Shown: one piece after another, positions 39,929-59,758 of the stretch
Numbering within the stretch: position 1 is the stretch's first letter
Layout of the letters: every line of letters begins with the position of its first letter
DNA from: Myxococcales bacterium
Lineage (GTDB): Bacteria; Myxococcota_A; Polyangia; Polyangiales; Polyangiaceae
Reading direction: 5' to 3'
DNA length: 64,000 nucleotides
NCBI GenBank assembly: GCA_016703425.1
Contig: JADJCA010000011.1
Location: 186,050-250,049 of the forward strand
Notes under the pieces: model-generated
What the model saw: the letters and a program-made list of their open reading frames with translations, nothing else
Told to the model about the DNA's origin: nothing
Database searches by the model: none
Position numbers and translations under genes: made by a program

Positions 39929-42900
39929 TTGCACGCCGCGGGCATGCCCAAACGCATCGGTTGGCTCAGCGCGAGTACGTCTTTGGTTGGGCTCTTTCTG
40001 GGACTCGCGTCATGCAGCGCCACGCCCGAAGTGGACGCGCGCCGCGATTTTGCTCGCGGCGCCACGGCGGACCAGCCTTCGTCGGTCTTCGTGGAGACCT
40101 GCGAGGTGCTCGACGCCACGAGCGCCGTGCCCGACGAGGGCGCCGCGTACCTCCTCGCAGGCGGCTTGGCAGGCGCGTTGGGCTCCGGCGGCGATCGCGA
40201 GAGGCAGCCGTTGCAGTCGACGCTTCGGCTCTTCGAAGACGGCGTCGAGATCGGCCCGCCTCACAGCATCCACGCCGACATCCGCGTGTTGGGCGGCGGT
40301 CGATTCTCTCACTGGGGAACCACGCTCCGCTGGTCGTCCTCGGACAACAGCGATCCGCGCCTGAATGGCCGCGTCTACGCCGCGATGGTGTCTCACCCGA
40401 TGGACGTCACCACCGCCGCGCACGACGAGGGCAAGAACTACATTCTGACGGCGGCCTTCGGTCTCCCAGGGGACAGCGTGCAAGGCCCGACGCAATCGTC
40501 GTTGCGCCTCTTCGAAGACGGCGTCGAGCTCGGCCCCGCCCACAGCCTCCACCAAGACATCCGCGAGCTCGGCGCCGGTCGCTTCTCTCACTGGGGCAAC
40601 GCGCTCTACTTCTCGAGTCGTGACGGCAGCGATCCGCGCACCAACGGCCGAGCGTACTCCTTCGTGCGATCCGACACCTGCCTCGAGCCGACCCGCCGAG
40701 CACCCGAGGTCTGCACGCCGCTATCCCCGGGCGGGATGAGCCCCGAGGTCGGCCAGGCCTTCGTGACGAGGCAGGGACCGGAGGGCCCGAGCGATGGGGC
40801 CTCCGCGCCCACGCGGTCTACCACGCGCATCTACGAAGACGGCCGTCCGCTAGGACCGGCCCACAGTTCGCACGAGGCCATACGTCAGGTTGGGCGCGGC
40901 CGATTCTCACACTGGGGCGAGACGCTCTACTTCTCGTCCTCCGACGGCACCGACCCGCGCAGCAACGGCCGCGCGTACACGACGGCAGCGGCTCACGTGC
41001 TCCCCACCGTGAACGCCAACGTCGATGAAGGTCGCGCCTTCGCCCTTCCGTTGCTCGCGGCTCCGAGCGACACGGCGAGCCGGCCGACGCTGTCGCAAGT
41101 CGTTCTCTTTGAAGATGGGGTGCCGCTTGGGCCTGCGCACAGCACCCACGACGCGATCCGCACGCTCGGGGGCGGACGCTTCTCGCATTGGAACGGGAGG
41201 CTCTACTTCTCTAGTTCCGATGGCTCGGACGTGCGCACCAACGGCCGGGTCTACTCGTACCTCGCGTCCCCCGATTGCGACGACGGCTTTCCCGAAGCGC
41301 AGCTCGAGACCTGCGACGCCCTCGATCTGTCGGAGGCGGTCTCCGATGGCGGGGTCGCTTGGCGGCTCTCGAAGGCGTTCAGCGAACCGGGCGACACGGC
41401 GAACAAGCCGGGGCGCTCGCGGCTCATGGTCTTCGAAGATGGCAGACCCCTTGGGTTGGGCCATCGCGTCCACGACGAGATCCGCACGCTCGGCGCCGGG
41501 CGCTTCTCGCACTGGTACGACAGCCTGATCTTCTCCGCGTCGGACAACACCGATCCGCGGACCAACGGGCGACGCTACTCCGTGAAGGCGAGTCACTTGG
41601 TCAAGGTCTCGGCGGCGGCCTCCGCGGAAGGTCACGCCCTTCTCTTGGAGGACGCCTTTGGTGCACCCGGTGACTTGCCCGGCAGCCCGGCGGCTTCGTC
41701 GATGCGCCTCTTCGAGGATGGCGTCGAGCTAGGGCCCGCGCACAGCGCGCACGCAGAGATTCGCGAGCGTGGTCAGGGACGTTTCTCTCACTGGAACAAC
41801 GCGCTGTATTTCTCGTCCAGCGACGGCACCGATCCGCGGACCAATGGGCGGACGTACACGTACGTATTGAGCAGCCGGTGCGAAGACCCGAGCGAGTCGT
41901 ACTTCCGCGAGAACTTCCTCGACACCTACGCGGCGTCCGGCGCTCTCGGTCCCTCTTGGCAGACGAGCGGAGCGTGGCAGCGGAGCGCCTTGCGCGGGAT
42001 CACGGGCGCGTCGGGTGATGCGTCAGGTGGCGCGTCGAATGAGAGCGCTGAAGCGCTCCTCGACGCGCAACACTTTACCGACGCGCGGATCTCGACTTGG
42101 GTCGACCTGAGCGACGCGCAGGTGGGCGATTCGCTGGCCCTCGTTGCGCGGCGTCAAGCGAGCGGTGCGCACTACGCTGCGCGCTTGGCGAAGGCGGCTG
42201 CGGGCTACCGCGCATCCATCGAGCGGTGCACCGCCACCGCTTGCGAGGAGTTGTCGGCCAACAGCTTCTCGCGCGGCTTGGGAGTCTTCACCTTCGACCT
42301 CCGCGCCGACAAGCTCACGCTCTCCATGGCCGGTGCGGCAGAAGCTTTTGCCCGCGACGCGACCCTGAACGGTGCGGGCCAGCTGGGCCTCCGGGCCAAG
42401 CTTCGCGGAGGGGCTGTCGCCCGCTTCGGCGTGCAGCAGCGAGGTCTCGAACCAACGAGCGCGATCCAGGTCTCGACGATCGCGAGGGCCGACACCGGCT
42501 ACGCGACGTTCCAGAGCATCAACCAGCGCGTGGTCGAGACCCCTTATGGCTGGTTCACGACGTGGCTCGAAAGCTCCGCCGAGCGCCCCGACGGCTCGGC
42601 GCCGGGCGTGTGGAAGCTCGCCCGAAGCAGAAACGGCGGCCAAAGTTGGGACATCGTCGATCGAGCGACGATCCCCGTGAGCACCAAGCCACCGGTGTTC
42701 GACGTCGACGCGAAGGGAAACCTCTACCTCGTCTACGTCGACTGGATGACCGGTGCGGGCTTCTTCCGAAAGTACGGTCCCCAAAATGACTTCGCTGGCC
42801 CGGCGCTGTCGACGACGTTGAGCGGCGGATTGGGGACCGGAAAGTACGCGGTGATCTACGACGCAGCCCGCGACGCGCTTTGGTACATGAACGGCTACGG

Positions 42901-43729
42901 CGGTCGCCTGTGGCGCCTCCGAACCGATGGGACGCTCGACGCGGGTTGGCCGCAGGGCGGCCTCGCGATCGTGGGCCCTGGCTCCGTCGCGGGCCCTCAG
43001 TACATGCTTGTCGAACTGGCGAACGGCTCGCTCATCGCGGCGTGGACCTCGAATCAAAACGACGGCTGCGGGGGCTTTGGCGGCGTTTGCTACTACGACA
43101 TCCGGTTCCTCCATTCCGCCGACGGAGTCACCTGGAGGAACGCCGCCGGGGAGGCCGTGAGCCTGCCCGTGGCCGCCGACGGCACCGGCACCGGACCGCA
43201 AGCAACGGTGGTCACTCGCGTCGACGAGCCCACGGCGTCGAGCCTCAACTGGTTGGCCAACATCCGCTACGCCGCGGGCAAGCTTCACTTCATGTACCGG
43301 TCCGCCGACGCGAACCCGAGTCTGAGCAAAAGCCGCATGGAGTACGTGCGGTGGGATTGGGGCCCCGGCGCGCGCGTCGAGGACAAGCGCGTGGCTCTCG
43401 AGCCGTGGGCCGGACGAGCGGTCTCGCTTCTGGGCTTGGACGGATTCTTCTCGGGGAGCGATCGGGCGACAGCACCGCTCGTCGCCGTCTCCCATGCGCC
43501 CAAGGGTGGCGACCGCGTCGGAGCCCTGATCAGTCGCGATGCAGGCAGCACGTGGAGCGACCTCGGCCTCGCCAACGCCGTGGGTCCAGAGCGTTGGGTC
43601 TACGCCGTCGGAGGCGCGCGTAAACCGACCGTCGATGGGTGGGTCTTGGGGACTTACACCGAGTTCCCGGTCAACGGCGCTGGCCCGGGGAGCTTCCTGG
43701 TGCGCTTTTTCAAGGTGCGCGCCCGGTAG
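39929..43729 (+). CDS. giant lipoprotein: six 93-aa tandem repeats plus C-terminal BNR/sialidase-like propeller
   Basis: Lipobox LFLGLASCSATPEV. Repeat consensus ...DEG.AY.L.AAFG.PGD....P..S.LRLFEDGVELGPAHS.H..IR.LG.GRFSHW...LYFSSSDGSDPRTNGR.Y occurs six times. Asp-box-like motifs SRNGGQSW, SADGVTW, SRDAGSTW in the last 450 aa. Confidence 0.7.
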   Translation: MHAAGMPKRIGWLSASTSLVGLFLGLASCSATPEVDARRDFARGATADQPSSVFVETCEVLDATSAVPDEGAAYLLAGGLAGALGSGGDRERQPLQSTLRLFEDGVEIGPPHSIHADIRVLGGGRFSHWGTTLRWSSSDNSDPRLNGRVYAAMVSHPMDVTTAAHDEGKNYILTAAFGLPGDSVQGPTQSSLRLFEDGVELGPAHSLHQDIRELGAGRFSHWGNALYFSSRDGSDPRTNGRAYSFVRSDTCLEPTRRAPEVCTPLSPGGMSPEVGQAFVTRQGPEGPSDGASAPTRSTTRIYEDGRPLGPAHSSHEAIRQVGRGRFSHWGETLYFSSSDGTDPRSNGRAYTTAAAHVLPTVNANVDEGRAFALPLLAAPSDTASRPTLSQVVLFEDGVPLGPAHSTHDAIRTLGGGRFSHWNGRLYFSSSDGSDVRTNGRVYSYLASPDCDDGFPEAQLETCDALDLSEAVSDGGVAWRLSKAFSEPGDTANKPGRSRLMVFEDGRPLGLGHRVHDEIRTLGAGRFSHWYDSLIFSASDNTDPRTNGRRYSVKASHLVKVSAAASAEGHALLLEDAFGAPGDLPGSPAASSMRLFEDGVELGPAHSAHAEIRERGQGRFSHWNNALYFSSSDGTDPRTNGRTYTYVLSSRCEDPSESYFRENFLDTYAASGALGPSWQTSGAWQRSALRGITGASGDASGGASNESAEALLDAQHFTDARISTWVDLSDAQVGDSLALVARRQASGAHYAARLAKAAAGYRASIERCTATACEELSANSFSRGLGVFTFDLRADKLTLSMAGAAEAFARDATLNGAGQLGLRAKLRGGAVARFGVQQRGLEPTSAIQVSTIARADTGYATFQSINQRVVETPYGWFTTWLESSAERPDGSAPGVWKLARSRNGGQSWDIVDRATIPVSTKPPVFDVDAKGNLYLVYVDWMTGAGFFRKYGPQNDFAGPALSTTLSGGLGTGKYAVIYDAARDALWYMNGYGGRLWRLRTDGTLDAGWPQGGLAIVGPGSVAGPQYMLVELANGSLIAAWTSNQNDGCGGFGGVCYYDIRFLHSADGVTWRNAAGEAVSLPVAADGTGTGPQATVVTRVDEPTASSLNWLANIRYAAGKLHFMYRSADANPSLSKSRMEYVRWDWGPGARVEDKRVALEPWAGRAVSLLGLDGFFSGSDRATAPLVAVSHAPKGGDRVGALISRDAGSTWSDLGLANAVGPERWVYAVGGARKPTVDGWVLGTYTEFPVNGAGPGSFLVRFFKVRAR
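40110..41880. repeat. six tandem 280-nt coding repeats inside the giant lipoprotein gene
   Basis: cttcgaagacggcgtcgag / ggtcgattctctcactgggg recur at regular spacing (40226, 40504, 41094, 41704 and others). Confidence 0.7.
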
Positions 43730-43853: not shown

Positions 43854-45179
43854 TCACCGCACGGGTGGCGAAATTGGCAGACGCAGCGGATTTAGGTTCC
43901 GCCGCCGCAAGGCGTGGGGGTTCAAGTCCCTTCCCGTGCACTTCTCGAGAGATGAGGGCTCCGACATGCCGCCCTCTCCAGCGCTTGCAGCCGCGAATGC
44001 AGCCGCTTTGACGGCTGCAAACTCAGGAATTGCTGCGTCGAGGGGAGCGAGGTCGCCGAGCTCGGTCTCGAGTGCGGTGCGCGCGGCGCGGCGGTAGCGA
44101 TTGATCATTTGCGAGGAGCGATGGCCCGTGCGGTCGGCGACCCATGTTTCGGAACGCCCGTTGGCCAGCGCGAGGGTGATGAACGTCGCGCGAAGATCGT
44201 GAATGCGGATTGGCTGGCGCGCGTCCGAGTCCTCGAAGAGCTCGGGACGGTCGACGCCCGCGGCTCGGAGATGCTCGCGGAGCTTGTCGGCCAAGTGGGT
44301 GCGGTCGACGAGGCCCTCGAAGACGAGGTCGCTCGAGGCTCGCATGTCGCGCCACGCGCTGAGAGCGTCGACGACGCCCGGGCTCATCTTCCACGCGCGA
44401 GCGTCGTCGGTCTTGTTCGTGTCGAGGCGAATCACGCCGCGCTCGAGGTCGACGTCGGCCCAGGTGAGGCGTTGTGCCTCGTCGCTCCGCATCCCCTCTC
44501 GCGCGAGGAACCCGTAGAAGACGCGGTGCGCGAGCGGCACGCTCGACGACGCGAGGAGCTTCGCGTCTTCGGCCGGATAGAGGTACGGCAACGCCTTCGC
44601 GCGTGGCGACTTGGGGAGAAAGCCGCGAGGGAGCGGCGAGCTCTTTAGTAAGCGGCACGGGTACACCGCGATCCCGAGGACGCGAATCATGAGCTGCGCA
44701 ACGTGCCGCCTCGAGGACGCCGACAGCTCGCCAGGAAGGCGGCGAAGAACCTCCGCCGCGTGGTCGATGGTGAACGCGTCGAGCGGCACCTCGCCGACGA
44801 CCGGATAGACGTGCTTCTCGAGGCGCCCCTCGTCGTCGTCGCTCGTTCGCTTGCGGCTCACATGGTCGGGGTAGCGGCGCGCCAGCTCGCCACTCGTCCA
44901 GTCTTCGGCGAACTTGCGGAAGGTGAGCGGGCCAGCCTTCGGGGGTTCGGCTTTTTTGACGATGACGCCGGCGACGATGCCTTCGACGGCACGACCAAGC
45001 TCGGCCATCTTCGCCTCGTCGGCGAGAGCGGCGCTCTCCGCAAGCTTCTCGACGAAGTCGACCGCGCCGGCCACGCGGAGGCGGTTCACGAGGGCCTGAA
45101 TGGCCTTCGCTCGCTGGTCGGCGGTCTCCGCGTCGACGCACCACGGGAGCGCTTCGTTGCGGCGCACACCAGGCGCCAC
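43854..45179 (-). CDS. tyrosine-type integrase (phage integrase family)
   Basis: C-terminal catalytic region HDLRATFITLALANGRSETWVADRTGHRSSQMINRYRR (R..H..R..Y). The last ~28 codons read through the antisense tRNA, so the true 3-prime end is uncertain. Confidence 0.85.
   Translation of the reverse strand: MAPGVRRNEALPWCVDAETADQRAKAIQALVNRLRVAGAVDFVEKLAESAALADEAKMAELGRAVEGIVAGVIVKKAEPPKAGPLTFRKFAEDWTSGELARRYPDHVSRKRTSDDDEGRLEKHVYPVVGEVPLDAFTIDHAAEVLRRLPGELSASSRRHVAQLMIRVLGIAVYPCRLLKSSPLPRGFLPKSPRAKALPYLYPAEDAKLLASSSVPLAHRVFYGFLAREGMRSDEAQRLTWADVDLERGVIRLDTNKTDDARAWKMSPGVVDALSAWRDMRASSDLVFEGLVDRTHLADKLREHLRAAGVDRPELFEDSDARQPIRIHDLRATFITLALANGRSETWVADRTGHRSSQMINRYRRAARTALETELGDLAPLDAAIPEFAAVKAAAFAAASAGEGGMSEPSSLEKCTGRDLNPHALRRRNLNPLRLPISPPVR
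43859..43940 (+). tRNA. tRNA-Leu (anticodon UAG), type II with long variable arm
   Basis: Manual fold: acceptor GCACGGG/CCCGTGC (7 bp), D-stem GCG/CGC, anticodon stem GCGGA/TCCGC, loop TTTAGGT giving anticodon TAG, 13-nt variable arm, T-loop GGTTCAAGTCC. CCA not encoded. Confidence 0.75.
43891..43944. repeat. attL core: 54-bp direct repeat, the 3-prime half of tRNA-Leu
   Basis: tttaggttccgccgccgcaaggcgtgggggttcaagtcccttcccgtgcacttc is identical to 59759-59812. Confidence 0.85.
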
Positions 45180-45240
45180 GACGATGCGGGCGAAGTAGCG
45201 GCCGCGGATGCAGCAAGCGCCTCCGCGCCGCGGGGTCGAC

Positions 45241-45426
45241 TTATTTCTTCGACTTCTTCTTGGTCAGCCCCGCACGCTCCGCTTCCTCGCGAATGAGTTG
45301 CCGGACGGCGTCCGTCATCGAGAGCCGCCTCGTCTCCGAGATGCGCTCGAGCTCGCCCCGCTCGTCGAGGCTGAGACGGAGGAAGATCCCCTTCGTGCGG
45401 TGTCGGTCGGGTTGGGCGGCGGGCAT
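45241..45426 (-). CDS. ribbon-helix-helix (CopG/Arc-like) DNA-binding protein
   Basis: MPAAQPDRHRTKGIFLRLSLDERGELERISETRRLSMTDAVRQLIREEAER shows the RHH beta-alpha-alpha pattern. Short 61-aa form chosen. Confidence 0.55.
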   Translation of the reverse strand: MPAAQPDRHRTKGIFLRLSLDERGELERISETRRLSMTDAVRQLIREEAERAGLTKKKSKK

Positions 45427-45565
45427 GTGGCTATCCATGCCTAGCACGCGCTTTCGACAATGGAAACGCTATTTCTGGCGATGCTTTTTCACATCGATGC
45501 GTTCCGTGGAAGGTCGCGGGGTTGCGGGGCCGCGTTCGTGATGCGAATAGGTCTCGCCGAAGCGG

Positions 45566-45985
45566 CTATTGCGCACCGCGTTCGAGGTTGGCCTGAAAGA
45601 CACCGACGACCTTGTCGCGCATCTCGCGTGACGAGATGTCCAAGAGGGACGCGTGCGCCGGCTTGAGTTCCGCGATTTGGCAGTCGTGTGACGAATATCG
45701 GACATCGACGCCGATCTTCCGAAGGGCAGAGGCAGCGAAGCGGGCCACTCCGTACCCCTTCCACGCCGGCTTCGCGGCCTCCAGCGACGCCAGGTCGTTC
45801 GGGAGGCGAGACGCGACATACACCGATGGCCCGTAGTTGCTCGGGGTCGGGGTACCCTCGAATTCCTTCGTCGGAAGCGACGCGGTTTTCACCACTCGTC
45901 CCTCGATATGGGTGGGGTGAATCAGGCGCAACACAGCTTCTTCGTCACCGACCGGCACAAGGTCGGACGCCGGCGGACGAATCAC
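45566..45985 (-). CDS. hypothetical protein (139 aa), GTG start overlapping the upstream stop (GTGA)
   Basis: Protein-like from VIRPPASDLVPVGDEEAVLRLIHPTHIEGRVVKT. The track ORF N-terminal 60 aa is Arg-rich junk. Confidence 0.4.
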   Translation of the reverse strand: MIRPPASDLVPVGDEEAVLRLIHPTHIEGRVVKTASLPTKEFEGTPTPSNYGPSVYVASRLPNDLASLEAAKPAWKGYGVARFAASALRKIGVDVRYSSHDCQIAELKPAHASLLDISSREMRDKVVGVFQANLERGAQ

Positions 45986-46494
45986 TTGCCGCGTCGCTGG
46001 TCGAGCAGCCGGGTTGTACGCAACAGAAGATCGCCAAGCGACGAGAACGTCTCTTCGGTGCGCTCCGACGGGCTCGACGCGGACACGACATGTTTCGCAT
46101 CCCCAAGCTCCGCAAGTACGGTCCGCTCGCCATCGCGCCATTCGAAGTGGATGTACCCATCTCCGCACGGCGAGATCATCGGCCGGGGGACATCGAACAA
46201 CACGACCATCGCGACGAACGAGCGCGCCGATTCCCAGCGTGACGCTGGAAAAGCTTCAGCCCCCTCATCGTCCCATCCCGGCAACCGGGTAACGACCTCG
46301 AGCCGCTTCAGTGTTTCGCGCGCCTCATCAAGCCACGGCTGTCGCCGCGCCGTGCGGGGCCCGGTGGGCTTCGGACGCGCGACTACGGGCAGCGGCGGCG
46401 GCTCCAGCTTACGCTCGACGCCGCTCTCCGGCGGCGGCGGCACGCGCCACCGTTGACCTTGCGTCTGTCGACGGTCGTAGGCGTGTTCGCTCAC
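45982..46494 (-). CDS. hypothetical protein (170 aa)
   Basis: WDDEGAEAFPASRWESARSFVAMVVLFDVPRPMISPCGDGYIHFEWRDGERTVLAELGDAKHVV has good composition. ATGA overlap with the upstream gene. Confidence 0.45.
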   Translation of the reverse strand: MSEHAYDRRQTQGQRWRVPPPPESGVERKLEPPPLPVVARPKPTGPRTARRQPWLDEARETLKRLEVVTRLPGWDDEGAEAFPASRWESARSFVAMVVLFDVPRPMISPCGDGYIHFEWRDGERTVLAELGDAKHVVSASSPSERTEETFSSLGDLLLRTTRLLDQRRGK

Positions 46495-46778
46495 TGAATC
46501 CTCCCTGAGGTTGGGCTTGGCTGAACAAGATCCATGACCATCGCCACGAGTTGGAGGGCCTGCCCTTTGCCCATGATGACCCGCGTCCTCACGAGCGCAG
46601 GTAGCACTTGCTTGCCGCCCTCCTCACGGATGGCTTGCGGCTGCACGGAGCAGAAGTCGAGGTAAACCTCGTCATCCGACGCCGACAGCGCCACATGGTT
46701 CGAGTGGACCTCGGGCAAGTCGCGCGGGTCGGCAGGGTAGATCGGCTTGAACTCCTGGATGTTTATCCGGTCGGCCAC
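46491..46778 (-). CDS. hypothetical protein (95 aa)
   Basis: MADRINIQEFKPIYPADPRDLPEVHSNHVALSASDDEVYLDFCSVQPQAI. First gene of a three-gene translationally coupled cassette. Confidence 0.45.
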   Translation of the reverse strand: MADRINIQEFKPIYPADPRDLPEVHSNHVALSASDDEVYLDFCSVQPQAIREEGGKQVLPALVRTRVIMGKGQALQLVAMVMDLVQPSPTSGRIQ

Positions 46779-46893
46779 GGGGTCTCCTCGGGCGGGAAGA
46801 TATGCGCTCCGGAGGGAACACGCACGTTCGGCGTAGTATGCCCCGCCCGCATGCTCTACGGGGGTTCAGTGGCGCCTTGCTGAGCACCGTCGC

Positions 46894-48003
46894 TCACGCC
46901 CTCACCTTCGACGCGCCGGTGAGGATGACGCCGGTGATCGGAACGGGCGCGAGAAGCACGCTCTCGAATGCGCCCGCCGTTGGTGAAACCCCCGAGAACG
47001 GCGTCCCGGGCGGGATGGTGCACGACACGACATCGCCAACGCGCGCGACCGCTTGGAGGCCGCCGCCGAGCGATAGCTCAGTCACGCCGCCGGCGGCGTC
47101 GAACGAAACAACGCGAGGCTTGGCGGGGTCGCCATTCTTCCAGGTGACACCGACGCGCGTCCCTCGAGGCACCTTCGCGGTCGTGCCCGGGGTGCCGAAG
47201 TCAATCGGGACGCCGGCGAGGTCCGGAAAGCGGGGGTCCTCGAGGTCGAGCTCGAGCGTCCCGTCGGCCGCTTGGAGGATGACGGTCGCGGCGTAGGTGC
47301 CGAAATAGTCGACGTGTGAGACCGCCCGACGGATGAGGGCGTCGAGGGTCGCGCGGTCGCCGACCTCGAGGACCATCGCGGTCCCCTGGTCTCCGACCGA
47401 GGCCGTCGCTCGAGCGACGCGCTCGCCGGCGACCGTCGTGCCCGGGAGGGCCCATCGCCGCACCTCGACGCGCCCGGTCGCGCTGTCGCGGTTGAGGATG
47501 TCGAGGTCGACGAGGCCGGCGTCGGGCCACGTCGGGGCCTTGAGCAGGAGCGATCCCGCCGGGGTCATGCGCCACGCGAGGCCGAGGGAGCGGGCGAGCG
47601 AGGAGAGCGCGAGGGCGGCGTGCGAGCCCTCGCGGGTCCAGTGCTCGAGCTCGACGTCGACGTCGCTCGCGGGGTCGAGTGTCTCGCCTGCCTCCGTTGC
47701 GATGTCATTCGCGACCGTGCGCGCGGAGACGCGGCGATAGTGTCGAGCGGCGAGGACCTTCGGCATGCCGCCGCCACCGCCGACGATGCGAGCCTCGACG
47801 GTGCCGGCAAACGACGCGCCACGGCGCGCGGCGCCGCGGAACGTGCCAACGCCTTCCCACTCGAGCGACACGGCTCCGGCGACGACGGACGCGTCGGAGC
47901 CCTCGACCTCGACGTCGGCCCACCACGCGCCCTCGAGGGGCACGACGAGGCGAGCGCGCACCACACGGGCGCCGTTGAGGGTGACGAGTGAGTTGTTACG
48001 CAT
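46894..48003 (-). CDS. phage tail-associated protein (370 aa) downstream of the tape measure; possibly a distal tail protein
   Basis: Start MRNNSLVTLNGARVVRARLVVPLEGAWWADVEVEG at 48001-48003, overlapping the TMP end. Beta-rich. Function inferred from position only. Confidence 0.45.
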   Translation of the reverse strand: MRNNSLVTLNGARVVRARLVVPLEGAWWADVEVEGSDASVVAGAVSLEWEGVGTFRGAARRGASFAGTVEARIVGGGGGMPKVLAARHYRRVSARTVANDIATEAGETLDPASDVDVELEHWTREGSHAALALSSLARSLGLAWRMTPAGSLLLKAPTWPDAGLVDLDILNRDSATGRVEVRRWALPGTTVAGERVARATASVGDQGTAMVLEVGDRATLDALIRRAVSHVDYFGTYAATVILQAADGTLELDLEDPRFPDLAGVPIDFGTPGTTAKVPRGTRVGVTWKNGDPAKPRVVSFDAAGGVTELSLGGGLQAVARVGDVVSCTIPPGTPFSGVSPTAGAFESVLLAPVPITGVILTGASKVRA

Positions 48004-49792
48004 GACCTGCCTCCAACGCTGATCCCTCAAGTGCGGACGCGAACTCTTCGCCGAGACTTCGGCCGAGTCGGCGGCCGTAGCTCTCCGCGCTCTCGCCCTC
48101 GCGCCGCCCATCGGCATTGACCGTGACGGTGACGTTGTTGGTGCTTCGAGCCCCGGAAGGCCTCCCGAGGTCGTGTGGCGCGGACGCGGAGACGGCGCGC
48201 GGCGCCGTGTCGGCCGCATCGAGGCGCGTCGCGAGGTTCTCGAGGCTGAACGCGTCACTTCCCGCCTGGACCTGGGAGAGCAAGGAACTCTCAGCGCCTC
48301 CGGTCGCGAACTCCGCCGCGCCTGGTCCGGTCTTGATTCCCAGGGCGCTCCTCACCGCGGGCGGGAGCTGGTCAACCAGACTTCCGAGGCGAGAGAGCAA
48401 GCCGGCCCACGCCGACGACAAGCCTTGCCAAATGCCCTCGACGATGTCGGTCCCGACCTTCACGAAACGATCCCAGGACATGCCGAGCTCGAGCGGGAGG
48501 CTCCGCCAGAAGTCGAGGAACTTTTGCCAGCGGTCGACGACCCAACCGGCAGCGGCCGCGACCACGGCGCCGCCGACTACAATCGCGCCGAAGACGAGGC
48601 CGACGACAGTGCCGACGCTCTCGAAGCCGCGTGTGAGGCGGTCGAGGTGGTCGGTGCCGCTGATTCCCAACATGGCGAGGATGTCGGAGAAGCGCTCGAA
48701 GGTTGCGAGCGCTCCCTTCCCGCCGGCGGCTAGCCCATCGATGAAGGCGGCCCCCATCTTCGACAGCGGCTCGAGAACGTCGAGGACGCGCGACAGCCCC
48801 TTCGTCGCGTCGGGGTTCCCGAAGGCGCGCGTGATGGCGTCGCCGATGGTCTCGATGATGCGAACGACGCGGCCCCCCGTGTCGCTCTTTGGGTTTAGGG
48901 CGTTGCCGAGGTCCTCGAGGAACTTCATGCCCCCGCCGCCCTTGAAGTTGGCGGCGGTCACGAGCTCGAAGGGCCTCGACGCGAGCGTCGACGTGAGGCC
49001 GGTCATCGTCTTGGCCATCTTCGCCTGAAGCGAGCCGGCGTTCCCGCCGCTCATTCCGACCGTGATGGCCTCGAGGATGGCGCCGACGCCTTGGTCGGCC
49101 GTGATCTTCCCGGCTTGCTGTAGCTTGTCGAGCTCGTTCCGCGTCTTCCCGAGCGTCTTCCCGAGCGAGTCATAAACGAGCTTTTGCGAGACGCCCGCCT
49201 CCGCGAGCTGCATCATCTCTTCGCCAGAGAGCTTGCCCTTCGCCTTGATTTGGCCGAGCGCGCGAACGACGCTCTCAATGCCCTCTTGACCCTTGAGGAC
49301 GCCGACGTCGCCGACGACGTTGAGGACGTCGAACACCTCGCCCTGCTTGAAGCCGGCGATGAGGAGCTTTTGGATGTTCCCGACGACGTCCTTCGTCGCG
49401 AAGGGTGTCACCGCGGCGAAGTCGACGGCCTTGTTATAGATGTCGGCCGCGGCTTCCTTGGTGCCGAGCATGACCTCGAAGCCGACGAGCGTGTTCTCCT
49501 TGAAGGCGAGCGACTCGGCCGCGAACTTCGCGCCGAGCACAGCGCCGCCGACAGCGACGGCGCCCGCAACAAGGGCGACCGACTTGAGGCCGCCGGCGAC
49601 GTTCTTGAGGAATTCGCCCGAGCCGGAATTTAGTTCCTTGATGCCCTTCGCCGCGCCCGGCATGAATTGCCCTTGGGCGTTGCGGAGGGGGCGCATCGCT
49701 CGATCCAACCCGTCGAGAGAGGCCGTGGCCTTGCGGGCCGGGCCGCTCACGCGGTCGAGGAGCTCGAGGACAAAGGTGAGGGTGTCAGCCAT
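47996..49792 (-). CDS. phage tail tape measure protein
   Basis: 598 aa. Tape-measure domain VVRALGQIKAKGKLSGEEMMQLAEAGVSQKLVYDSLGKTLGKTRNELDKLQQAGKITADQG. Gly/Ala-rich hydrophobic segments. Confidence 0.8.
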   Translation of the reverse strand: MADTLTFVLELLDRVSGPARKATASLDGLDRAMRPLRNAQGQFMPGAAKGIKELNSGSGEFLKNVAGGLKSVALVAGAVAVGGAVLGAKFAAESLAFKENTLVGFEVMLGTKEAAADIYNKAVDFAAVTPFATKDVVGNIQKLLIAGFKQGEVFDVLNVVGDVGVLKGQEGIESVVRALGQIKAKGKLSGEEMMQLAEAGVSQKLVYDSLGKTLGKTRNELDKLQQAGKITADQGVGAILEAITVGMSGGNAGSLQAKMAKTMTGLTSTLASRPFELVTAANFKGGGGMKFLEDLGNALNPKSDTGGRVVRIIETIGDAITRAFGNPDATKGLSRVLDVLEPLSKMGAAFIDGLAAGGKGALATFERFSDILAMLGISGTDHLDRLTRGFESVGTVVGLVFGAIVVGGAVVAAAAGWVVDRWQKFLDFWRSLPLELGMSWDRFVKVGTDIVEGIWQGLSSAWAGLLSRLGSLVDQLPPAVRSALGIKTGPGAAEFATGGAESSLLSQVQAGSDAFSLENLATRLDAADTAPRAVSASAPHDLGRPSGARSTNNVTVTVNADGRREGESAESYGRRLGRSLGEEFASALEGSALEAGHA

Positions 49793-50081
49793 TGCGCGCC
49801 TCCGCGACGTTGAAGATCAGCGCTTCGTCACCGAGCCCGACGAGGCCCACGACGGAGCTGGGGCGTGCGGCGCTCCTCGCGCTCTCGTACCGCTGAGCCA
49901 ACGCTGGCCACTTCTCGCGCAGCTCCCGAAGCAGGTCGCGTGCGAGCACGACCGACGCTTCGCAGTCTTCTCGCACAAGCACGGCGAGACTGGCCGGCCT
50001 GTGCCCTAGCGCCATCATCGCGAACAGCTTCGGTCGAAGCGCTTGCTCCCATCGTTCAAAGTCGGTCGGCGTCGGATTCAT
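49785..50081 (-). CDS. hypothetical phage protein (98 aa)
   Basis: Clean small ORF immediately upstream of the TMP; position suggests a tail assembly chaperone. Confidence 0.4.
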   Translation of the reverse strand: MNPTPTDFERWEQALRPKLFAMMALGHRPASLAVLVREDCEASVVLARDLLRELREKWPALAQRYESARSAARPSSVVGLVGLGDEALIFNVAEARNG

Positions 50082-50094
50082 CGTCGACCTCCCT

Positions 50095-50913
50095 TCACTC
50101 CGCCGCCGTGGGGGGCTCGTTGTTGAATGTCACTGGCGCGAGCCTCTCGACGACCGCCGAGAAGAACGCCGCCGTGGGCTCGCTCTCCCACGGCCACGCG
50201 AACCCTTGCGAGAACCCGACGGCGGGGGCTTCGCGCGGCTGAACCCACGCCCCGAGCCGCATGAAGTTCGGGTCACCGGGCGGAGGCGGCGTCTCGCCTC
50301 GAGCGTGGGCGAGCTCAGCGATGGTGCGCTGACTCAAGTGGAGAGCACGCGCGACGAGCGCCTCGAGCGCGCCGAAGCCGGAGATGTTCGTCTCCCGCGA
50401 TGACGCTCGCAGGTCGAGCGCGTCGGTGGCACCAAGCTCCGTCGCCCGCGTAGCCATGGCATGAAACACGCGTGCCTTCGTCGAGAGCCTCGCGCGTATC
50501 GCCGCGAGGCGGTCGGACAGCTCGGCGACCTCGAGGACATCCTCAGCGACGAGCTCGTCGAACGCCTGCGCCGTCACTTGGGGCGCGAGGATGGCCAGCG
50601 CGGCAGCGTTCGCGTTTGCCGTTGCGAGTTCAAGCGCCCGAGTTGCTTTCGCCACAACCGCACGCTTCCAGCGCGCCATGGCCTCGAGACGGGAGAGCTC
50701 GAGCTCGAGCGGCTCGACGTTCTTGGTCCAGGCCTTTGGGTCGGCCATGTGGGCATCCCTTGCGCGCTCGAGCGCGGCGCGTGCGGCGTCGACCTCGCTG
50801 GCGGCCTGTCGTGCGGCGGTCTCCGCGCCCTCGAGCGCGGCGCGTGCTTCGCGCACCTTCGCCTCGTCGTCGTCGTGGCGCTTCTCTCTGGCGATCGGCG
50901 TGAGCGCGTTCAT
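50095..50913 (-). CDS. hypothetical coiled-coil phage protein (272 aa)
   Basis: Start MNALTPIAREKRHDDDE at 50913. Long Ala/Glu/Arg helical region. The N-terminal 76 codons of the track ORF were rejected. Confidence 0.45.
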   Translation of the reverse strand: MNALTPIAREKRHDDDEAKVREARAALEGAETAARQAASEVDAARAALERARDAHMADPKAWTKNVEPLELELSRLEAMARWKRAVVAKATRALELATANANAAALAILAPQVTAQAFDELVAEDVLEVAELSDRLAAIRARLSTKARVFHAMATRATELGATDALDLRASSRETNISGFGALEALVARALHLSQRTIAELAHARGETPPPPGDPNFMRLGAWVQPREAPAVGFSQGFAWPWESEPTAAFFSAVVERLAPVTFNNEPPTAAE

Positions 50914-51122
50914 GAGCGGGGCTCCTTGACTTGGGGGGCCTTCATGTCCGCGAGGGCGCGTTCCGTTTCCGCATCCTCGTGTGACGTGGCGAGATGGCAG
51001 AGGACGGCGAAACGACGGAGGCCTTCCCCAACGGTCCGCGCGCCGGTGGCGGACCTCAGCACGTCGTGAACGAGCCCAACGCGCTGCGCAGCCTGCTCGG
51101 CGGTCATGGCGGGAGTTCCCAT
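50910..51122 (-). CDS. hypothetical small phage protein (70 aa)
   Basis: ATGA overlap downstream and TGATG overlap upstream. Confidence 0.35.
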   Translation of the reverse strand: MGTPAMTAEQAAQRVGLVHDVLRSATGARTVGEGLRRFAVLCHLATSHEDAETERALADMKAPQVKEPRS

Positions 51123-51616
51123 CAGAGCACCCCTTCGTCAATCATCCGTTTTTGCGTGGCGACGTAGACGTCGGCCGACAGGCCGAGAACCCTCAGCGTC
51201 GCCTCGTCGGGGACGTCGATGGTGCGCGCGCCGTGGTGAACGACGCGCGTCGCCGGTGACGCGCTTTCGCGCTGAAGCGTTGCTACCTGCCGCTCGAGCG
51301 GCACCGGATGAAGCGTGCCGTCGGCGATCTGCTTCCGCTGTACCTCGATGAACTCGTCGCGCGTCATGCCGAGGAGCCGCAGGGTCGCGGCGGGAGGCAC
51401 TTCGACGCCGTCGGCGGTGAAGGTGGTTCGGTCGTTGGTGTTCATGGTTTGGGCTCTTTCTTCTGTCGGCACGAAGGGCGCCGAGTGGTTTGAGGGTGGG
51501 CCAGCGGGTGAGCGTGAAGCGGGGCCGTCGTCGCCGGATGACGGCGAGAGCACGATGGGAATGAAGAGAGCGTCGACGACGACCGTGCCCTCGACGTTGA
51601 AGCGTCGGTCGGTCAT
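51122..51616 (-). CDS. hypothetical phage protein with internal duplicated 26-aa motif
   Basis: ATLRLLGMTRDEFIEVQRKQIADGTL and ATLRVLGLSADVYVATQKRMIDEGVL. Start ATG overlaps the TerL stop (ATGA). Confidence 0.4.
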   Translation of the reverse strand: MTDRRFNVEGTVVVDALFIPIVLSPSSGDDGPASRSPAGPPSNHSAPFVPTEERAQTMNTNDRTTFTADGVEVPPAATLRLLGMTRDEFIEVQRKQIADGTLHPVPLERQVATLQRESASPATRVVHHGARTIDVPDEATLRVLGLSADVYVATQKRMIDEGVL

Positions 51617-53058
51617 AGGGATCGGTCTCCTCCGTTGGTTCCGCCCTCTCCGTCGACGAAACGGAGGGAGTGATCGCGGTCGTCGTCAGAAGCATCATCG
51701 ATGGCCAGAAGCGGCCCCCACTTGTCGTGAGCACCACGGAGGGACTGACTGAAGGCCTGGCCGATGCCGGTCATACGGAGCGGCGACGACGCGAAGGCAC
51801 CCGGGGAAGCGGCGAACGCGCCGGCAAGCGCATCGACCTGGTCGTCGTGCACGTCGCCGGCCCCGGTGAACGAGACGATCTCGCTCACGAACGCGTCGAG
51901 CCACGGGGCCGAGTTCGGCAGGAGCACGCGACCCGCATTCCACTTCGCGGCCACGGGCTGGGCTCGGGTGAACTTGTCCCCAATGGCAGGCCGGGCGTCG
52001 ATGCTGAGGCCTTGGCTTCGCATCATGTCGACGGTCCCCTTCTCCGTGCCACTCACGAACGCCGTAGCCCGCGCGCCGCCCCATCGATCGCGAAGGCCCT
52101 TGAGCGCGCCCATGAACTCGGGAGCGCGCACTTGCAGACGAAGCACCTCAAGCACGAAGTGAAGCGAGTCGCGGCCGCGGCCCGTCGTGCCGAGGACAAC
52201 GGCGACGGAGTAGTCGGCCCGCGTCTTCGTCGAATAGGCGAGGTCGACGCCAATTCGCACGTCGAGGCCATCGCGCGGAGGCGCGGCGTCGAAGACGTGA
52301 ACGTCTTGGAACAAGGCGCCGCCGCGGGGCATCGGCTGCCCCTGGTAGAGCGACGCCCATCCGTACGCGCCAATCTGCTCTTGGATGGCCCGAAGGCGCT
52401 CGACAGAGAACCGCTCGGGCCAGAGGGCACGGCCATGACCGTCGATTGCGGGGAGGCACACGTTCGCCCATCCGTCGCGGATGAGAGAGCCGGCCAGGTC
52501 GTCGGGATGCCACCGCGTTTGAATGACAATCGCGGAGCCGTTGGGCTCGAGCCGGGTGAAGGCGACGTCGTCGAACCACTCGCGCGTCTGTTGACGGCGG
52601 AGCGAGCTCTCCGCTTCGACGCGGTCCTTTACCGGGTCGTCGACGAGGAGGACGTCGAAGCCCTCGCCAGTGATGCCGCCGCCAATGCTCGTCGCCCACA
52701 CCCCGCCGTCCTCGACGCCCGTGCGCCAGTCGTGCTTGGACGCGGAATCCTCGGAGACGGTGACGTGTGCCGCGATGGCGAGCTCACGGGCCTTGCGGGA
52801 CTTCTTCTCGGCGAGCCGCTGGGCATAGCTCACATACGCGATCTGGGCGTCGGGCCGCTGTAAGAGCCACCAAGGGATCGCGTGGAGTACAGACTCCGTC
52901 TTCGCGTGGCGCGGAGGCACCGACACGACAGCGCGAACGGGCTCGACGAGGGCGCGCTCAAGGACCTCGAGGAACGGGCGAAGGTGCGTCGGCGCGACGT
53001 AGCGCGGCGAGAGAAGCGGAATGAACCGCTCAAGCGAAGCGATGCGGCGGGCCTTCAC
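51613..53058 (-). CDS. phage terminase large subunit (GTA/PBSX-type family)
   Basis: P-loop-like VSVPPRHAKTE, Walker B LLVDDP, TRWHPDDL, nuclease motifs GVDLAYS and HDDQVDAL. Confidence 0.85.
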   Translation of the reverse strand: MKARRIASLERFIPLLSPRYVAPTHLRPFLEVLERALVEPVRAVVSVPPRHAKTESVLHAIPWWLLQRPDAQIAYVSYAQRLAEKKSRKARELAIAAHVTVSEDSASKHDWRTGVEDGGVWATSIGGGITGEGFDVLLVDDPVKDRVEAESSLRRQQTREWFDDVAFTRLEPNGSAIVIQTRWHPDDLAGSLIRDGWANVCLPAIDGHGRALWPERFSVERLRAIQEQIGAYGWASLYQGQPMPRGGALFQDVHVFDAAPPRDGLDVRIGVDLAYSTKTRADYSVAVVLGTTGRGRDSLHFVLEVLRLQVRAPEFMGALKGLRDRWGGARATAFVSGTEKGTVDMMRSQGLSIDARPAIGDKFTRAQPVAAKWNAGRVLLPNSAPWLDAFVSEIVSFTGAGDVHDDQVDALAGAFAASPGAFASSPLRMTGIGQAFSQSLRGAHDKWGPLLAIDDASDDDRDHSLRFVDGEGGTNGGDRSL

Positions 53059-53633
53059 GGCTTCCCCTCCGTTTCGCCACTCGTCGCCTCAAACCATGGC
53101 GGGAGCGCACCGCCGTGCGTGGCCTTGCGCGCCTGCGCCTCGCGCACCGCGAGCTCGTAAGCCGCCAACAGGTTCTGCCGGCTAGCGTTCGCTAGCTGGC
53201 TCGCAGTCTGAAGCGTGGCCGCGTCGCCGCTGACCGCACCGCGCGCGAACAGGAAGCGCGAACTCGCAAGCTGAAGGGCGGCGCTGGCCACCATGGTCGA
53301 CGGGCCCGGACCACATGTGCCACCGGCCTGAAGCGCGAGCGCTTCGACGTGGCTGCGAAAAAACTCGTCGGCGGCGACCTGGAACGGGCGGAAGTCCGAC
53401 TCGGCGGCGAGCTCAGCGAGGCCAAGCCCAGCCACGAGGCGCGCCTTGTAGGCCTTCTTGAAGCCCCCCAGGGAGCCCAGGCGCTTGGCGGACTCTGGAT
53501 CGGCGACCGTGCCATCCCGGCGACGACGCACCGGCTCCGGCACACCCGGCACCGGCGCCGGAAGCTCGTCGGGCGGCAAGACCTCGATGCGGGGCACGCC
53601 CGCTCCGTTTCCGTGGCCAGTGCGAAGTGTCAT
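53055..53633 (-). CDS. hypothetical protein; position suggests the terminase small subunit
   Basis: Start MTLRTGHGNGAGVPRIEVLPP at 53633. Stop overlaps the TerL start. No motif recognised. Confidence 0.4.
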   Translation of the reverse strand: MTLRTGHGNGAGVPRIEVLPPDELPAPVPGVPEPVRRRRDGTVADPESAKRLGSLGGFKKAYKARLVAGLGLAELAAESDFRPFQVAADEFFRSHVEALALQAGGTCGPGPSTMVASAALQLASSRFLFARGAVSGDAATLQTASQLANASRQNLLAAYELAVREAQARKATHGGALPPWFEATSGETEGKP

Positions 53634-53938
53634 CAATGCCTCCGCGCATCGATGCGCTCGACGGGCAACCACCAAAGGCCCGCGTCGTCGTCGGCGACGA
53701 CGAAGACGGGGAGCGAGCGCGGACGGCGCGCGCCGAGATGTCGGGCGTAGCTGTCGAAACCGGCCGAACGAAGCCAACCGATGAACTCAGCGCGGGGAAG
53801 CACGCGAACGCCCTCGGGTTCGGCGCTGTCGATGTAGCAGGCGAGCGTCTCGACCGCGGCGCCGCGTCGCATGAAGGCTGCGAGCTGCCGCCGGAGCGAA
53901 GCGAGACGGGCGACGGCCAGGTGGGGACCCGTGGTCAT
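53633..53938 (-). CDS. hypothetical small phage protein (101 aa)
   Basis: MTTGPHLAVARLASLRRQLAAFMRRGAAVETLACYIDSAEPEGVRVLPRAEFIGWLRSAGFDSYARHLG. ATGA overlap downstream. Confidence 0.35.
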   Translation of the reverse strand: MTTGPHLAVARLASLRRQLAAFMRRGAAVETLACYIDSAEPEGVRVLPRAEFIGWLRSAGFDSYARHLGARRPRSLPVFVVADDDAGLWWLPVERIDARRH

Positions 53939-53972
53939 CGTCGCGCCTCCACACCAGCGCAACGGGCGGCGG

Positions 53973-54293
53973 TCACGGCCAAAGCTCCTTCTCGAGCCGT
54001 TGGCGAAGGGCCTTGAGACGGAACCGGTCGCCAGCCCCAGGCTTCTCGAGCTCGAGCCAATCCTCGACCCGCGCGAGCGCGACCGACATGGCTTCCCGCG
54101 CGCGGCGCCTCGTCCCGAAGTCGGCGGGCGTGAACCCCGAGGCGCGGTAGCGCTCCGTGACACGTAGACGCGTCTCGGCGGCCAGGACGGCCCGGAGTAC
54201 CTCCGGCCATGCGATCGGCGTTCCTGGCGAGGGGGTCGACTTTTGCGAGCTTGTTTTCTCGAGGCGCCGTGAGGGCGCCGGATCGGTGTTCAT
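53973..54293 (-). CDS. hypothetical small phage protein (106 aa)
   Basis: MNTDPAPSRRLEKTSSQKSTPSPGTPIAWPEVLRAVLAAETRLRVTERYRASGFTPADFG. Confidence 0.35.
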   Translation of the reverse strand: MNTDPAPSRRLEKTSSQKSTPSPGTPIAWPEVLRAVLAAETRLRVTERYRASGFTPADFGTRRRAREAMSVALARVEDWLELEKPGAGDRFRLKALRQRLEKELWP

Positions 54294-54575
54294 GCTGCCC
54301 TCCGTCGCGGTGACGCGGGGGAGGCCCGGACCGCATGTAAGTGCTCGAAAGCTCGTCGCCCGGGGAAGAGCAGGCCACCGGAGCAGCCGCAAAGCGGCCG
54401 CCGGTGAGCCGGCTAGCCTCGGTTCCTCGACGCCGCAGCGGACTGCTCATCCGGTGAATCCGGCTGAAACGACCCTCCCCGCTTGGCACGAACGTGAGCC
54501 AGAGCAGGCCAAGTGCAGAATGCACGGGTTTACTGAAGCCAGATTCCGGGGCTCCCGTGACTTGTGCCACCGGGC

Positions 54576-56198: not shown

Positions 56199-57015
56199 TC
56201 CCCTCGAGGAGGGCGCCGTGCGGCATCGTCCCGCGCTCGCGCGCTTGCCGAACCTTTCGCCGAAGCTCGTGCTCGGACCACGGCGGGGAGCACGACTTGT
56301 TCCAATTACGGAGAAGCTCCAGCGACTCTCCGTCGGAAAGCCCGAATCCCCTCACGAGACGTTGGGCGACGACGAACGTATGGGCGTGCCCGTTGGCGCC
56401 CGAGATCGCGGGGGCAATCTTCTCGAGGTAGCGGCGCGCCCGATCAAACGCGTCCGGCGACGATGGCGATGCGGGGGCGCACGGCGCCGGCTCGACGCTG
56501 CGCCGAGTGGCCAGCTCCACAAGCCAGGCGGGCGCCTTGGCGATGGGTGTCCCAGGGGGCGAGTCCCACGCATAGCTTGCCGCGGTCACGCTCGGAGCAA
56601 CGAGGATGTAGCGCCTCGCGAACCCCTGCTCGTCGGCGCCGTGCAAGAAGTCGAGTCCCGGCCCGAGCTTGCCGCGGCAGTCGACGCCGCTTGGCATGAG
56701 AAACAAGTGATGCGCGCCGCCGCCGCCCGTGCGCGCGGTCTTGGTTGCGGGGAGCGGGCCATGCGCCTCGAGGATGCGCGCGAGCGTCTTGTCGCCCCCG
56801 CTCCGAGGGTCGACGTCGAGGACGGCAAGGGGCGGCGTGACCGCTATCGCGAGATTCGCGGACGGCCATCGTCGCGCCCACTCTTCGATGCGCGGCTCGA
56901 GCCGAGTGGCGTCCTTGACGCCGTGCTTCAGGAGCGGACGCTTCCCGCCCGGTTCGACGGGGAGAACGAAGAAGCCGAAACGCGCGTAACGCAGCGCGGC
57001 GACGAACCAGTTCAT
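56185..57015 (-). CDS. bifunctional DNA primase/polymerase (Prim-Pol) N-terminal domain plus PriCT-like C-terminal domain
   Basis: MNWFVAALRYARFGFFVLPVEPGGKRPLLKHGVKDAT is the Prim-Pol signature. HHLFLMPSGVDC follows. C-terminal HAHTFVVAQRLVRGFGLSDGESLELLRNWN. Stop overlaps the helicase start. Confidence 0.7.
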   Translation of the reverse strand: MNWFVAALRYARFGFFVLPVEPGGKRPLLKHGVKDATRLEPRIEEWARRWPSANLAIAVTPPLAVLDVDPRSGGDKTLARILEAHGPLPATKTARTGGGGAHHLFLMPSGVDCRGKLGPGLDFLHGADEQGFARRYILVAPSVTAASYAWDSPPGTPIAKAPAWLVELATRRSVEPAPCAPASPSSPDAFDRARRYLEKIAPAISGANGHAHTFVVAQRLVRGFGLSDGESLELLRNWNKSCSPPWSEHELRRKVRQARERGTMPHGALLEGRRAS

Positions 57016-57461: not shown

Positions 57462-57646
57462 CGGACCTCCGCGGTCGAGGCCACCGCGCGGGACAGGTCG
57501 AGGCGTCGCTCGAGGAGCGCTATGCGCTCCTCAATGGCGTCGGCGAACTCGACGTGCCCTTCACCGTCGACCACGAAGAACGCGGCGCGGAGCGATGCCA
57601 GTTCGGCGCGGATGTCGAACCCGAAGAACGCGACATCGACCCTCAT
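57458..57646 (-). CDS. hypothetical small protein (62 aa)
   Basis: MRVDVAFFGFDIRAELASLRAAFFVVDGEGHVEFADAIEERIALLERRLD. ATGA overlaps on both sides. Confidence 0.3.
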   Translation of the reverse strand: MRVDVAFFGFDIRAELASLRAAFFVVDGEGHVEFADAIEERIALLERRLDLSRAVASTAEVR

Positions 57647-59709: not shown

Positions 59710-59758
59710 CTTCCGGATATCGTTAGCGTCGACTCCCGATGCGTCGTCCTCCGAGGGC

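Follow-up and report, generated by a model that had tools for sequence, protein, structure and literature searches.

A lipoprotein-type protein of a Myxococcales bacterium combining six copies of an unnamed, widespread domain with a predicted seven-bladed propeller

What might be the function of a protein in which a lipoprotein-type N-terminus is followed by six copies of a sequence unit without a name and then by a β-propeller? The question is raised by a gene at 39929..43729 on the forward strand of a 64,000-nucleotide (nt) stretch of DNA from a Myxococcales bacterium (contig JADJCA010000011.1 of assembly GCA_016703425.1), the whole of which is referred to below as the window. An initial annotation saw here a surface-anchored carbohydrate-binding or carbohydrate-degrading protein with a sialidase-like propeller. 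A carbohydrate role is still the best inference and the lipoprotein-type character stands; the sialidase specificity does not. Sequence comparisons mark the repeat unit as a mobile domain that stands on its own; its family comprises several thousand sequence clusters and is without a Pfam or NCBIfam model. The reading that we favour, with a probability of about 0.55, is of an exported, lipid-anchored, modular protein, whose units would be new relatives in kind of the carbohydrate-binding modules (CBMs) and bind polysaccharide, and whose propeller would cleave or bind an acidic polymer.

The gene and its signal are located as follows.

39944..43729, forward strand: complete gene, 1261 amino acids (aa) plus stop, from the open reading frame (ORF) list and exact-sequence look-up; MBK6694796.1
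39944..40015, forward strand: type II (lipoprotein) signal peptide ending in L-A-S-C, sequence MPKRIGWLSASTSLVGLFLGLASC

A single ORF on the forward strand (39929..43729 in the ORF list) encodes 1266 aa from a TTG, the length at which the initial annotation described a lipoprotein. The ORF and the lipobox are indeed seen, but the annotated start, an ATG at 39944, gives a 1261-aa product that is on record at NCBI, without any difference in sequence, as MBK6694796.1 ('hypothetical protein IPG50_21685'; Myxococcales bacterium, metagenome-assembled genome (MAG)). The exact-sequence look-up returned no record for the product of the TTG at 39929, and the ATG is the more plausible start. Numbering of the repeats, Cys residues and propeller nevertheless follows the 1266-aa ORF throughout. 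Lipoboxes follow the pattern [LVI][ASTVI][GAS]C, and a canonical one, LASC, is found in the N-terminus MPKRIGWLSASTSLVGLFLGLAS/C behind a charged n-region and a hydrophobic core, its Cys being aa 29 of the ORF and aa 24 of the annotated protein. The whole, MPKR-IGWLSASTSLVGLFLG-LASC, with charged n-region, hydrophobic h-region and lipobox, has the features of a signal peptidase II substrate. The call of a lipoprotein-type protein is sound at the sequence level, and acylation of the lipobox Cys may be inferred from it.

The six repeat units lie between this signal and aa 651.

40118..40399, forward strand: repeat unit 1, aa 64-157, Cys58 just upstream (anchor motif, alignment, hidden Markov model (HMM) match)
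40397..40678, forward strand: repeat unit 2, aa 157-250, abutting unit 1, Cys251 just downstream (anchor, DNA core, HMM)
40718..40999, forward strand: repeat unit 3, aa 264-357, Cys262 just upstream (anchor, DNA core, HMM)
40994..41275, forward strand: repeat unit 4, aa 356-449, Cys450 just downstream (anchor, DNA core, HMM)
41318..41599, forward strand: repeat unit 5, aa 464-557, Cys462 just upstream (anchor, DNA core; modelled with unit 6)
41597..41878, forward strand: repeat unit 6, aa 557-650, Cys651 just downstream (anchor, DNA core; modelled with unit 5)

The number of repeats given in the initial annotation is borne out by the G.GRFSHW anchors, found at aa 122, 215, 322, 414, 522 and 615, and by a 181-nt DNA core that a repeat search of the DNA recovered in six copies. 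The repeats are real, far above chance, old and diverged. Much else that had been said of them proved otherwise. Instead of high identity at the protein and DNA levels, pairwise identities of whole units are 44-63% for protein and 54-67% for DNA (64-76% within the 181-nt core). Tandem Repeats Finder (TRF) reported no tandem repeat in the array, and it contains no long exact repeats, so that the recombination or assembly collapse foreseen for near-identical DNA would have no substrate. Nor is the periodicity a regular ~280 nt: the spacing of the anchors alternates as 93/107/92/108/93 aa (279/321/276/324/279 nt), making the array one of three pairs of units with an uneven period. Finally, the 90%-identity cluster of the protein holds five other full-length sequences (1258 or 1261 aa), drawn from other NCBI, ENA and Logan assemblies and forming two lineages ~92% identical to each other. 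All five have six units, and the count is therefore not the assembly artefact that had been allowed for. The two-unit period is seen only in the linkers and in the positions of the Cys residues. Odd and even repeat subtypes, as of a two-unit block duplication, were rejected since the identity matrix has no odd/even grouping.

The unit extends well beyond this protein. A six-unit profile matches all 120 best homologues, in one to eight copies each, with the units placed N-terminally, C-terminally or interspersed with other domains. Among 229 proteins two copies are commonest (143 proteins), followed by three (58), and six or more are rare (5). In a HMMER search with a di-repeat profile, exhaustive over 1.84 billion cluster representatives, the number of proteins matched is 4,464 at E <= 1e-3, falling to 3,550 at E <= 1e-10 and to 361 at E <= 1e-30. 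The many phyla over which the family is spread include Myxococcota, Nitrospirota, Gemmatimonadota, Proteobacteria, Bacteroidota and Armatimonadota. Neither Pfam nor NCBIfam yielded a model for the repeat when scanned with the whole protein, with a single unit at E <= 10 or with 38 diverged di-repeat sequences; no family matched more than one sequence and all matches had E > 0.01. The motif strings GRFSHW, GRYSHW, DPRTNGR and SDNSDPRTNG were not found in the literature searched. The initial annotation was thus correct in not recognising a described domain, although it treated as peculiar to this protein what is a mobile domain in thousands of proteins across phyla.

DUF6484 (PF20093) was rejected as the identity of the repeat. 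In one relative (P0003) its summed match reaches 27.5 bits against a threshold of 27.6, with no single stretch passing, and falls on the variable N-terminal half of the units. The 61-residue model leaves the conserved half of the unit uncovered, touches one of the 38 di-repeat sequences (E 0.035) and never matches the window protein.

Conservation within the family is strong and specific. Across 286 non-redundant units G61 and Y87 are present in 100%, E40 in 99%, D76 and P80 in 98% and N83 in 97%, followed by W66 (90%) and by H49, H52 and H65 (82-86%); G12, D26, S34, G42, G59, S64, F72, S73, S75, D79, G84 and R85 complete the signature. Some ten polar or aromatic residues conserved at 82-100% exceed the needs of a spacer domain and point to a ligand or metal site. 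An AlphaFold2 (AF2) model of units 5-6, based on a 38-sequence alignment, has a predicted local distance difference test (pLDDT) score of 95.1 and a predicted template modelling (pTM) score of 0.86. Each ~93-aa unit is modelled as about six short strands and one short helix with a long irregular loop, SxSDxSDPxxNGR, which is also modelled confidently. Foldseek comparison of this model with solved structures gave no match at E <= 0.001 and template modelling (TM) scores of at most 0.26; the fold, as predicted, is without a close counterpart among them.

The Cys residues provide a further indication of how the units are arranged. After the lipobox Cys the N-terminal array contains exactly six, at 58/251, 262/450 and 462/651, and these pairs bracket units 1-2, 3-4 and 5-6, respectively. 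Among the exported-type fusions of the wider family (propeller, β-helix, lectin), 47 of 91 units have a Cys at both ends, compared with none of 78 in the cytoplasmic-type fusions (glycosyltransferase (GT), methyltransferase, radical S-adenosylmethionine (SAM)); a signal-like N-terminus is likewise present in 20 of 36 exported-type proteins and in 0 of 25 of the cytoplasmic type. We infer that the two termini of a unit lie side by side and, in exported members, are stapled by a disulfide. No linker separates units 1/2, 3/4 or 5/6, which should bring the N-terminus of the first unit of a pair and the C-terminus of its second close to their junction. A single staple might in that case enclose both units as one module, C58-C251, C262-C450 and C462-C651 giving three rigid modules, an arrangement that agrees with the high pTM of the unit 5-6 pair.

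With what else does the unit occur? Fusion partners were read from precomputed Pfam hits on the homologues. They are GT4 glycosyltransferases, methyltransferases of the class I SAM and TylF types, radical SAM/SPASM enzymes, PMT-type GT-C, asparagine synthase, SGNH/GDSL hydrolases, a sulfatase-type transferase, right-handed β-helix, pectate lyase, F5/8-C lectin, kelch/galactose-oxidase, DUF4838 and BNR/BNR_4 propellers. In a Gemmatimonadales MAG (L002) a 685-aa repeat protein (9818-11875) is encoded within a polysaccharide-synthesis locus (4381-18038) that has an initiating Glycos_transf_4, an NAD-epimerase, Methyltransf_24, a Wzz-like gene and three GT4 genes. In Candidatus Nitrospira defluvii (L001) a 690-aa repeat-only protein (9740-11812) is part of an unusual export cluster (3449-14222) with four HlyD-type genes, an M50 peptidase-PqqD-HlyD fusion, a SecA-like ATPase and a TolC-type outer-membrane factor, and this cluster may secrete it.

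Some individual relatives have distinctive layouts. In four of them (P0008, P0013, P0017 and P0019) repeat units are inserted between segments of a BNR_4-like propeller, which implies that the unit can be housed as an insertion in a propeller blade loop. A 1819-aa 'glycosyltransferase' of Bradyrhizobium arachidis (P0002) begins with a methyltransferase and ends with a GT4; between them are seven units with a strict 116-118-aa period, all of which have a single internal Cys in the same place, a layout that recalls the chain-length or terminator enzymes of O-antigen synthesis. The 685-aa protein of the Gemmatimonadales locus is adjoined by an 809-aa ORF without a Pfam match.

The C-terminal domain of the window protein and its landmarks are these.

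42464..43726, forward strand: seven-bladed BNR_4-like β-propeller (predicted), aa 846-1266, ~420 aa (AF2, Foldseek, Pfam matches of relatives)
42509..42529, forward strand: FQSINQR at the entry to blade 1; consensus FQSHNQK, the His of 16/17 relatives being Ile864 (family alignment)
42626..42649, forward strand: Asp-box 1, SRNGGQSW (Asp replaced by Asn), aa 900-907, C-D hairpin of blade 1 (model and alignment)
43115..43135, forward strand: Asp-box 2, SADGVTW, aa 1063-1069, C-D hairpin of blade 4 (model and alignment)
43334..43354, forward strand: RMEYVRW in blade 5; consensus RQHYxRF, the His of 15/17 relatives being Glu1138 (family alignment)
43532..43555, forward strand: Asp-box 3, SRDAGSTW, aa 1202-1209, C-D hairpin of blade 6 (model and alignment)

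For the region from aa ~830 to 1266, phmmer and BLASTP detect a homologous domain in ~25 of the proteins retrieved, with identities of 25-34% and E values from 1e-27 to 1e-51. All of these also carry the repeat, in various orders, a co-occurrence that is partly a ranking effect as two-domain matches rank higher in the original search. The AF2 model (pLDDT ~85) contains seven times four strands as defined by DSSP and is closed by an N-terminal strand. Its 13 best Foldseek matches are all to polysaccharide lyase (PL) families PL42 and PL24, headed by FoRham1 (PL42; 7ESL, 7ESK, 7ESN) with E 2.5e-12 and TM 0.65-0.67, and continuing with the PL24 ulvan lyases LOR107, 6JQ9 and Uly1 at E ~1e-10 (to 1e-9). 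After a drop of 2-3 log units follow generic propellers and sialidases, at E ~1e-7 to 1e-6. Pfam BNR_4 is matched by the propellers of 12/19 relatives (E <= 0.01; best 2.7e-7) and BNR by 14/19. PL25 ulvan lyases and the PL42 (formerly GH145) L-Rha-α-1,4-GlcA lyases are assigned to BNR_4 in Pfam (PMC13193363, PMC8377490). On the model, the C-terminal part of the protein belongs with the seven-bladed BNR_4-type propellers of the PL24/PL25/PL42 clan; it is no six-bladed sialidase. The three Asp-box-like motifs of the initial annotation, of the SxDxGxTW type, are confirmed, in family-conserved columns, and so is an Asp-box propeller, though one of ~420 aa preceded by an orphan region that the annotation had not noted, rather than of 450 aa.

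Comparison with the characterised lyases shows both kinship and distance. The PL42 enzymes FoRham1 and Bacteroides BT3686 are likewise seven-bladed propellers with Asp-boxes; a profile-sequence comparison gives a weak match (E 2e-5), and BNR_4 is common to PL42 and to the 12/19 relatives above. However, identity to the window propeller is only 13-14%, PL42 enzymes are single-domain proteins without a repeat array, and the present family has a conserved set of its own, consisting of FQSHNQK, K972, D978, Y1025, H1120 and H1138/Y1139. The PL24/PL25 ulvan lyases (LOR_107, 6BYP; Uly1, 7DRQ; 6JQ9; PLSV_3936), also seven-bladed and with BNR_4 in the PL25 members, are the second-best structural matches, but with a TM of only 0.5 to the window propeller, and they are marine algal-polysaccharide enzymes of polysaccharide-utilisation loci; nothing in the present results points to an ulvan-type substrate or to their His/Tyr/Arg catalytic set. 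PL42 and PL24 lyases cleave rhamnose-(1,4)-uronic acid linkages by β-elimination. The FQSHNQK-type propellers are an uncharacterised outlier of the PL24/PL25/PL42 clan and may hide a new lyase specificity.

Is this particular propeller likely to be active? In FoRham1 the roles of base and acid both fall to His85, with His105 assisting and Arg166 neutralising. The replaced His positions of the window protein, at the start of strand A in blade 1 and in strand C of blade 5, would both lie on the usual active-site face of a propeller. The protein further deviates from its family by N871T, D902N and P1026M, and retains K972, D978, R981, Y1025, Y1055, H1120, Y1139, R1141 and R1231. An N-terminal sub-profile free of Asp-boxes matched no propeller among PDB sequences. 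Catalytic competence is uncertain because the two family-conserved His residues are replaced.

The favoured reading may now be set out in full. The protein would be exported and lipid-anchored, and each of its units would be a glycan-binding, CBM-like module with a site composed of Glu40, His49, His52, His65, Trp66, Asp76, Asp79, Asn83, Arg85 and Tyr87, possibly around a metal ion. As three disulfide-stapled two-unit modules the six units would bind polysaccharide multivalently, attaching the protein to a polymer and presenting that polymer to the propeller. The distal, PL42/PL24-like propeller would cleave, or merely bind, an acidic polymer possibly containing rhamnose and uronic acid; alternatively, given the substitutions at 864 and 1138, it may be a binding-only or chemically altered module. 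Sialic acid is not the likely substrate; a polysaccharide of the bacterial surface or matrix would be. For the repeat itself the case for glycan binding is circumstantial and is drawn from its fusion partners, one exopolysaccharide-locus context and the polar/aromatic signature.

CBMs appended to carbohydrate-active enzymes are small β-sandwiches of ~90-100 aa that frequently occur as tandem copies and are joined to a wide variety of unrelated catalytic domains. Their sites are formed by aromatic together with acidic or Asn residues, often with Ca2+, and some are cytoplasmic and act on nascent polysaccharide, for example the C-terminal glycan-binding domain of the O-antigen ABC transporter Wzt. 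The repeat unit resembles CBMs in size, tandem use and variety of fusions, whereas binding by the unit is as yet a prediction.

Several findings weigh against a glycan-binding array coupled to a lyase-like propeller. Three conserved His residues with Glu and Asp would equally fit a small metallo-enzyme domain, and the cluster around the Nitrospira relative is concerned with export and not with glycans. The window propeller scores below the BNR_4 (PF15892) cut-off (11.4 vs 27.3 bits, E 0.2) and is without two family-conserved His residues (H864I and H1138E). H85, H105 and R166 of FoRham1 could not be aligned with it by sequence, the profile-PDB alignment spanning only FoRham1 208-308. The neighbourhood in the window (tRNA-guanine transglycosylase, MnmC-like methyltransferase, α/β-hydrolase lipoprotein, tRNA-Leu, prophage-like element) is no polysaccharide locus, which weakens any specific guess at the substrate.

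How do other explanations compare? The protein could be an adhesin of anchor, stalk and tip, in which six repeats that bind nothing act as passive rigid spacers, comparable to immunoglobulin or fibronectin type III stalks, and hold a lectin-like propeller off the membrane. The order of N-terminal lipid anchor, tandem array and C-terminal globular domain is as expected of such a protein, the predicted disulfide-stapled pairs would be suitably rigid, and the loss of two family-conserved His residues fits a non-catalytic binder. In addition, predicted fibrillar adhesins have been seen to carry BNR_4 domains at their tips, where the function of these domains is ambiguous (PMC9210967). Against this, spacers normally conserve only a hydrophobic core, whereas the unit keeps its ten or so polar and aromatic residues at 82-100% in 286 copies. 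The unit is, moreover, part of enzymes of the cytoplasm (GT4, methyltransferase, radical SAM), which have no use for a stalk, and the commonest copy number in the family is two, six or more being unusual. We regard passive spacers as unlikely.

Less probable again is that the repeat is a small catalytic or metal-centre domain that modifies glycans through its His/His/His/Glu/Asp set, rather than a binding module. The three conserved His, the near-invariant Glu and the two Asp would suit such a centre, as would the constant association with glycan-modifying enzymes and a fold without a close solved relative. Catalytic domains are, however, rarely repeated up to eight times in a chain, and the partner proteins have catalytic domains of their own; conservation of the His residues, at only 82-86%, falls below the 97-100% of Gly, Asp, Asn and Tyr, a pattern that suits a structural or binding loop better. 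As for the initial annotation's own picture, a sialidase or glycoside hydrolase (GH)-like propeller behind near-identical repeats of possibly artefactual number, we consider it highly improbable. GH33 sialidases do have Asp-boxes and the general propeller superfold in common with the window protein, and it is through the Asp-boxes that a profile search against PDB sequences finds them. Yet they have six blades, against the seven of the model, with an Arg triad and a Tyr/Glu nucleophile pair, and the FRIP/Arg-triad motif is absent here, FQSI standing at the FRIP position, and in Foldseek they reach E ~1e-6, compared with 1e-12 for the leading PL42/PL24 matches, which extend to 1e-9. The repeats, for their part, have the 54-67% DNA identity, the empty TRF result and the constant count of six described above.

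A wider and more tentative proposal, which we hold to be possible but would not bet on, takes the unit as a new family of glycan-recognition domains, of a fold absent from solved structures, acting on both sides of the membrane. In the cytoplasm it would tether GT, methyltransferase and radical-SAM enzymes to nascent polysaccharide; outside, disulfide-stapled forms would tether lyase-like propellers, β-helices and esterases to the finished polymer. A shared feature of surface polysaccharides would be recognised in both cases through the His/Trp/Asp/Asn site, possibly in a metal-dependent manner. Modular carbohydrate-active proteins are well known and the window protein as a whole is unsurprising; the repeat is the part worth following, being present in at least 4,400 sequence clusters from many phyla, with fusion partners that are consistently enzymes for the making, decoration or cutting of polysaccharides. 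Were it a binding module, it would represent a new CBM-like family, a handle for annotating thousands of 'hypothetical' multidomain proteins and a possible source of new glycan-recognition reagents.

Between the repeats and the propeller lies one more region.

41879..42463, forward strand: orphan middle region, aa 651-845, ~190 aa, Ala/Gly-rich, with a Cys pair at 767/772 (scans described below)

Local comparison with the retrieved proteins matches this region only to relatives in the 90% cluster, such as the 93%-identical P0001, and it appears to be lineage-specific. Pfam (E <= 10) and PDB sequence searches with aa 651-845 gave only noise, and AF2 produced spurious helices with pLDDT <50; a jelly roll of the LamG/DUF1080 type was considered for it and is unsupported by these results. 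Word-index searches with aa 650-1266 and 655-852 were empty despite the existence of P0001 and were counted as false negatives, empty word-index results being unreliable as negatives for this Ala/Gly-rich sequence.

In the window, the genes upstream encode a vault-protein-like protein, a histidine kinase, the tRNA-guanine transglycosylase, the MnmC-like methyltransferase and a divergently oriented α/β-hydrolase lipoprotein. Downstream are a tRNA-Leu and then an integrated element of ~15.9 kb; the repeat-protein gene is just outside this element and has a G+C content of 0.68, the same as the window. A promoter and terminator scan found nothing exceeding chance. The element (~43945-59758) is flanked by a 54-bp exact direct repeat (43891-43944 and 59759-59812) corresponding to the 3' part of the tRNA-Leu (43859-43941). 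With a tyrosine integrase (43854..45179, reverse strand) and a tape-measure protein (47996..49792, reverse strand) it has the look of a prophage or satellite of small size that entered at the tRNA gene. The vault-like gene (30987-33014, forward strand) encodes the 675-aa MBK6694790.1, annotated as hypothetical, which matches Pfam MVP_shoulder (E 3.8e-25) and Vault_3 and so resembles major vault protein. The α/β-hydrolase (38797-39678, reverse strand) has a lipobox of its own (MSRFALPLFAFLGLAQC). Contigs of the same two lengths, 16,887 bp and 6,417 bp, contribute members to its 90% cluster and to the cluster of the repeat protein, suggesting that the two genes are neighbours in the sister lineage too, and the hydrolase, for example as an esterase, may be a functional partner of the repeat protein.

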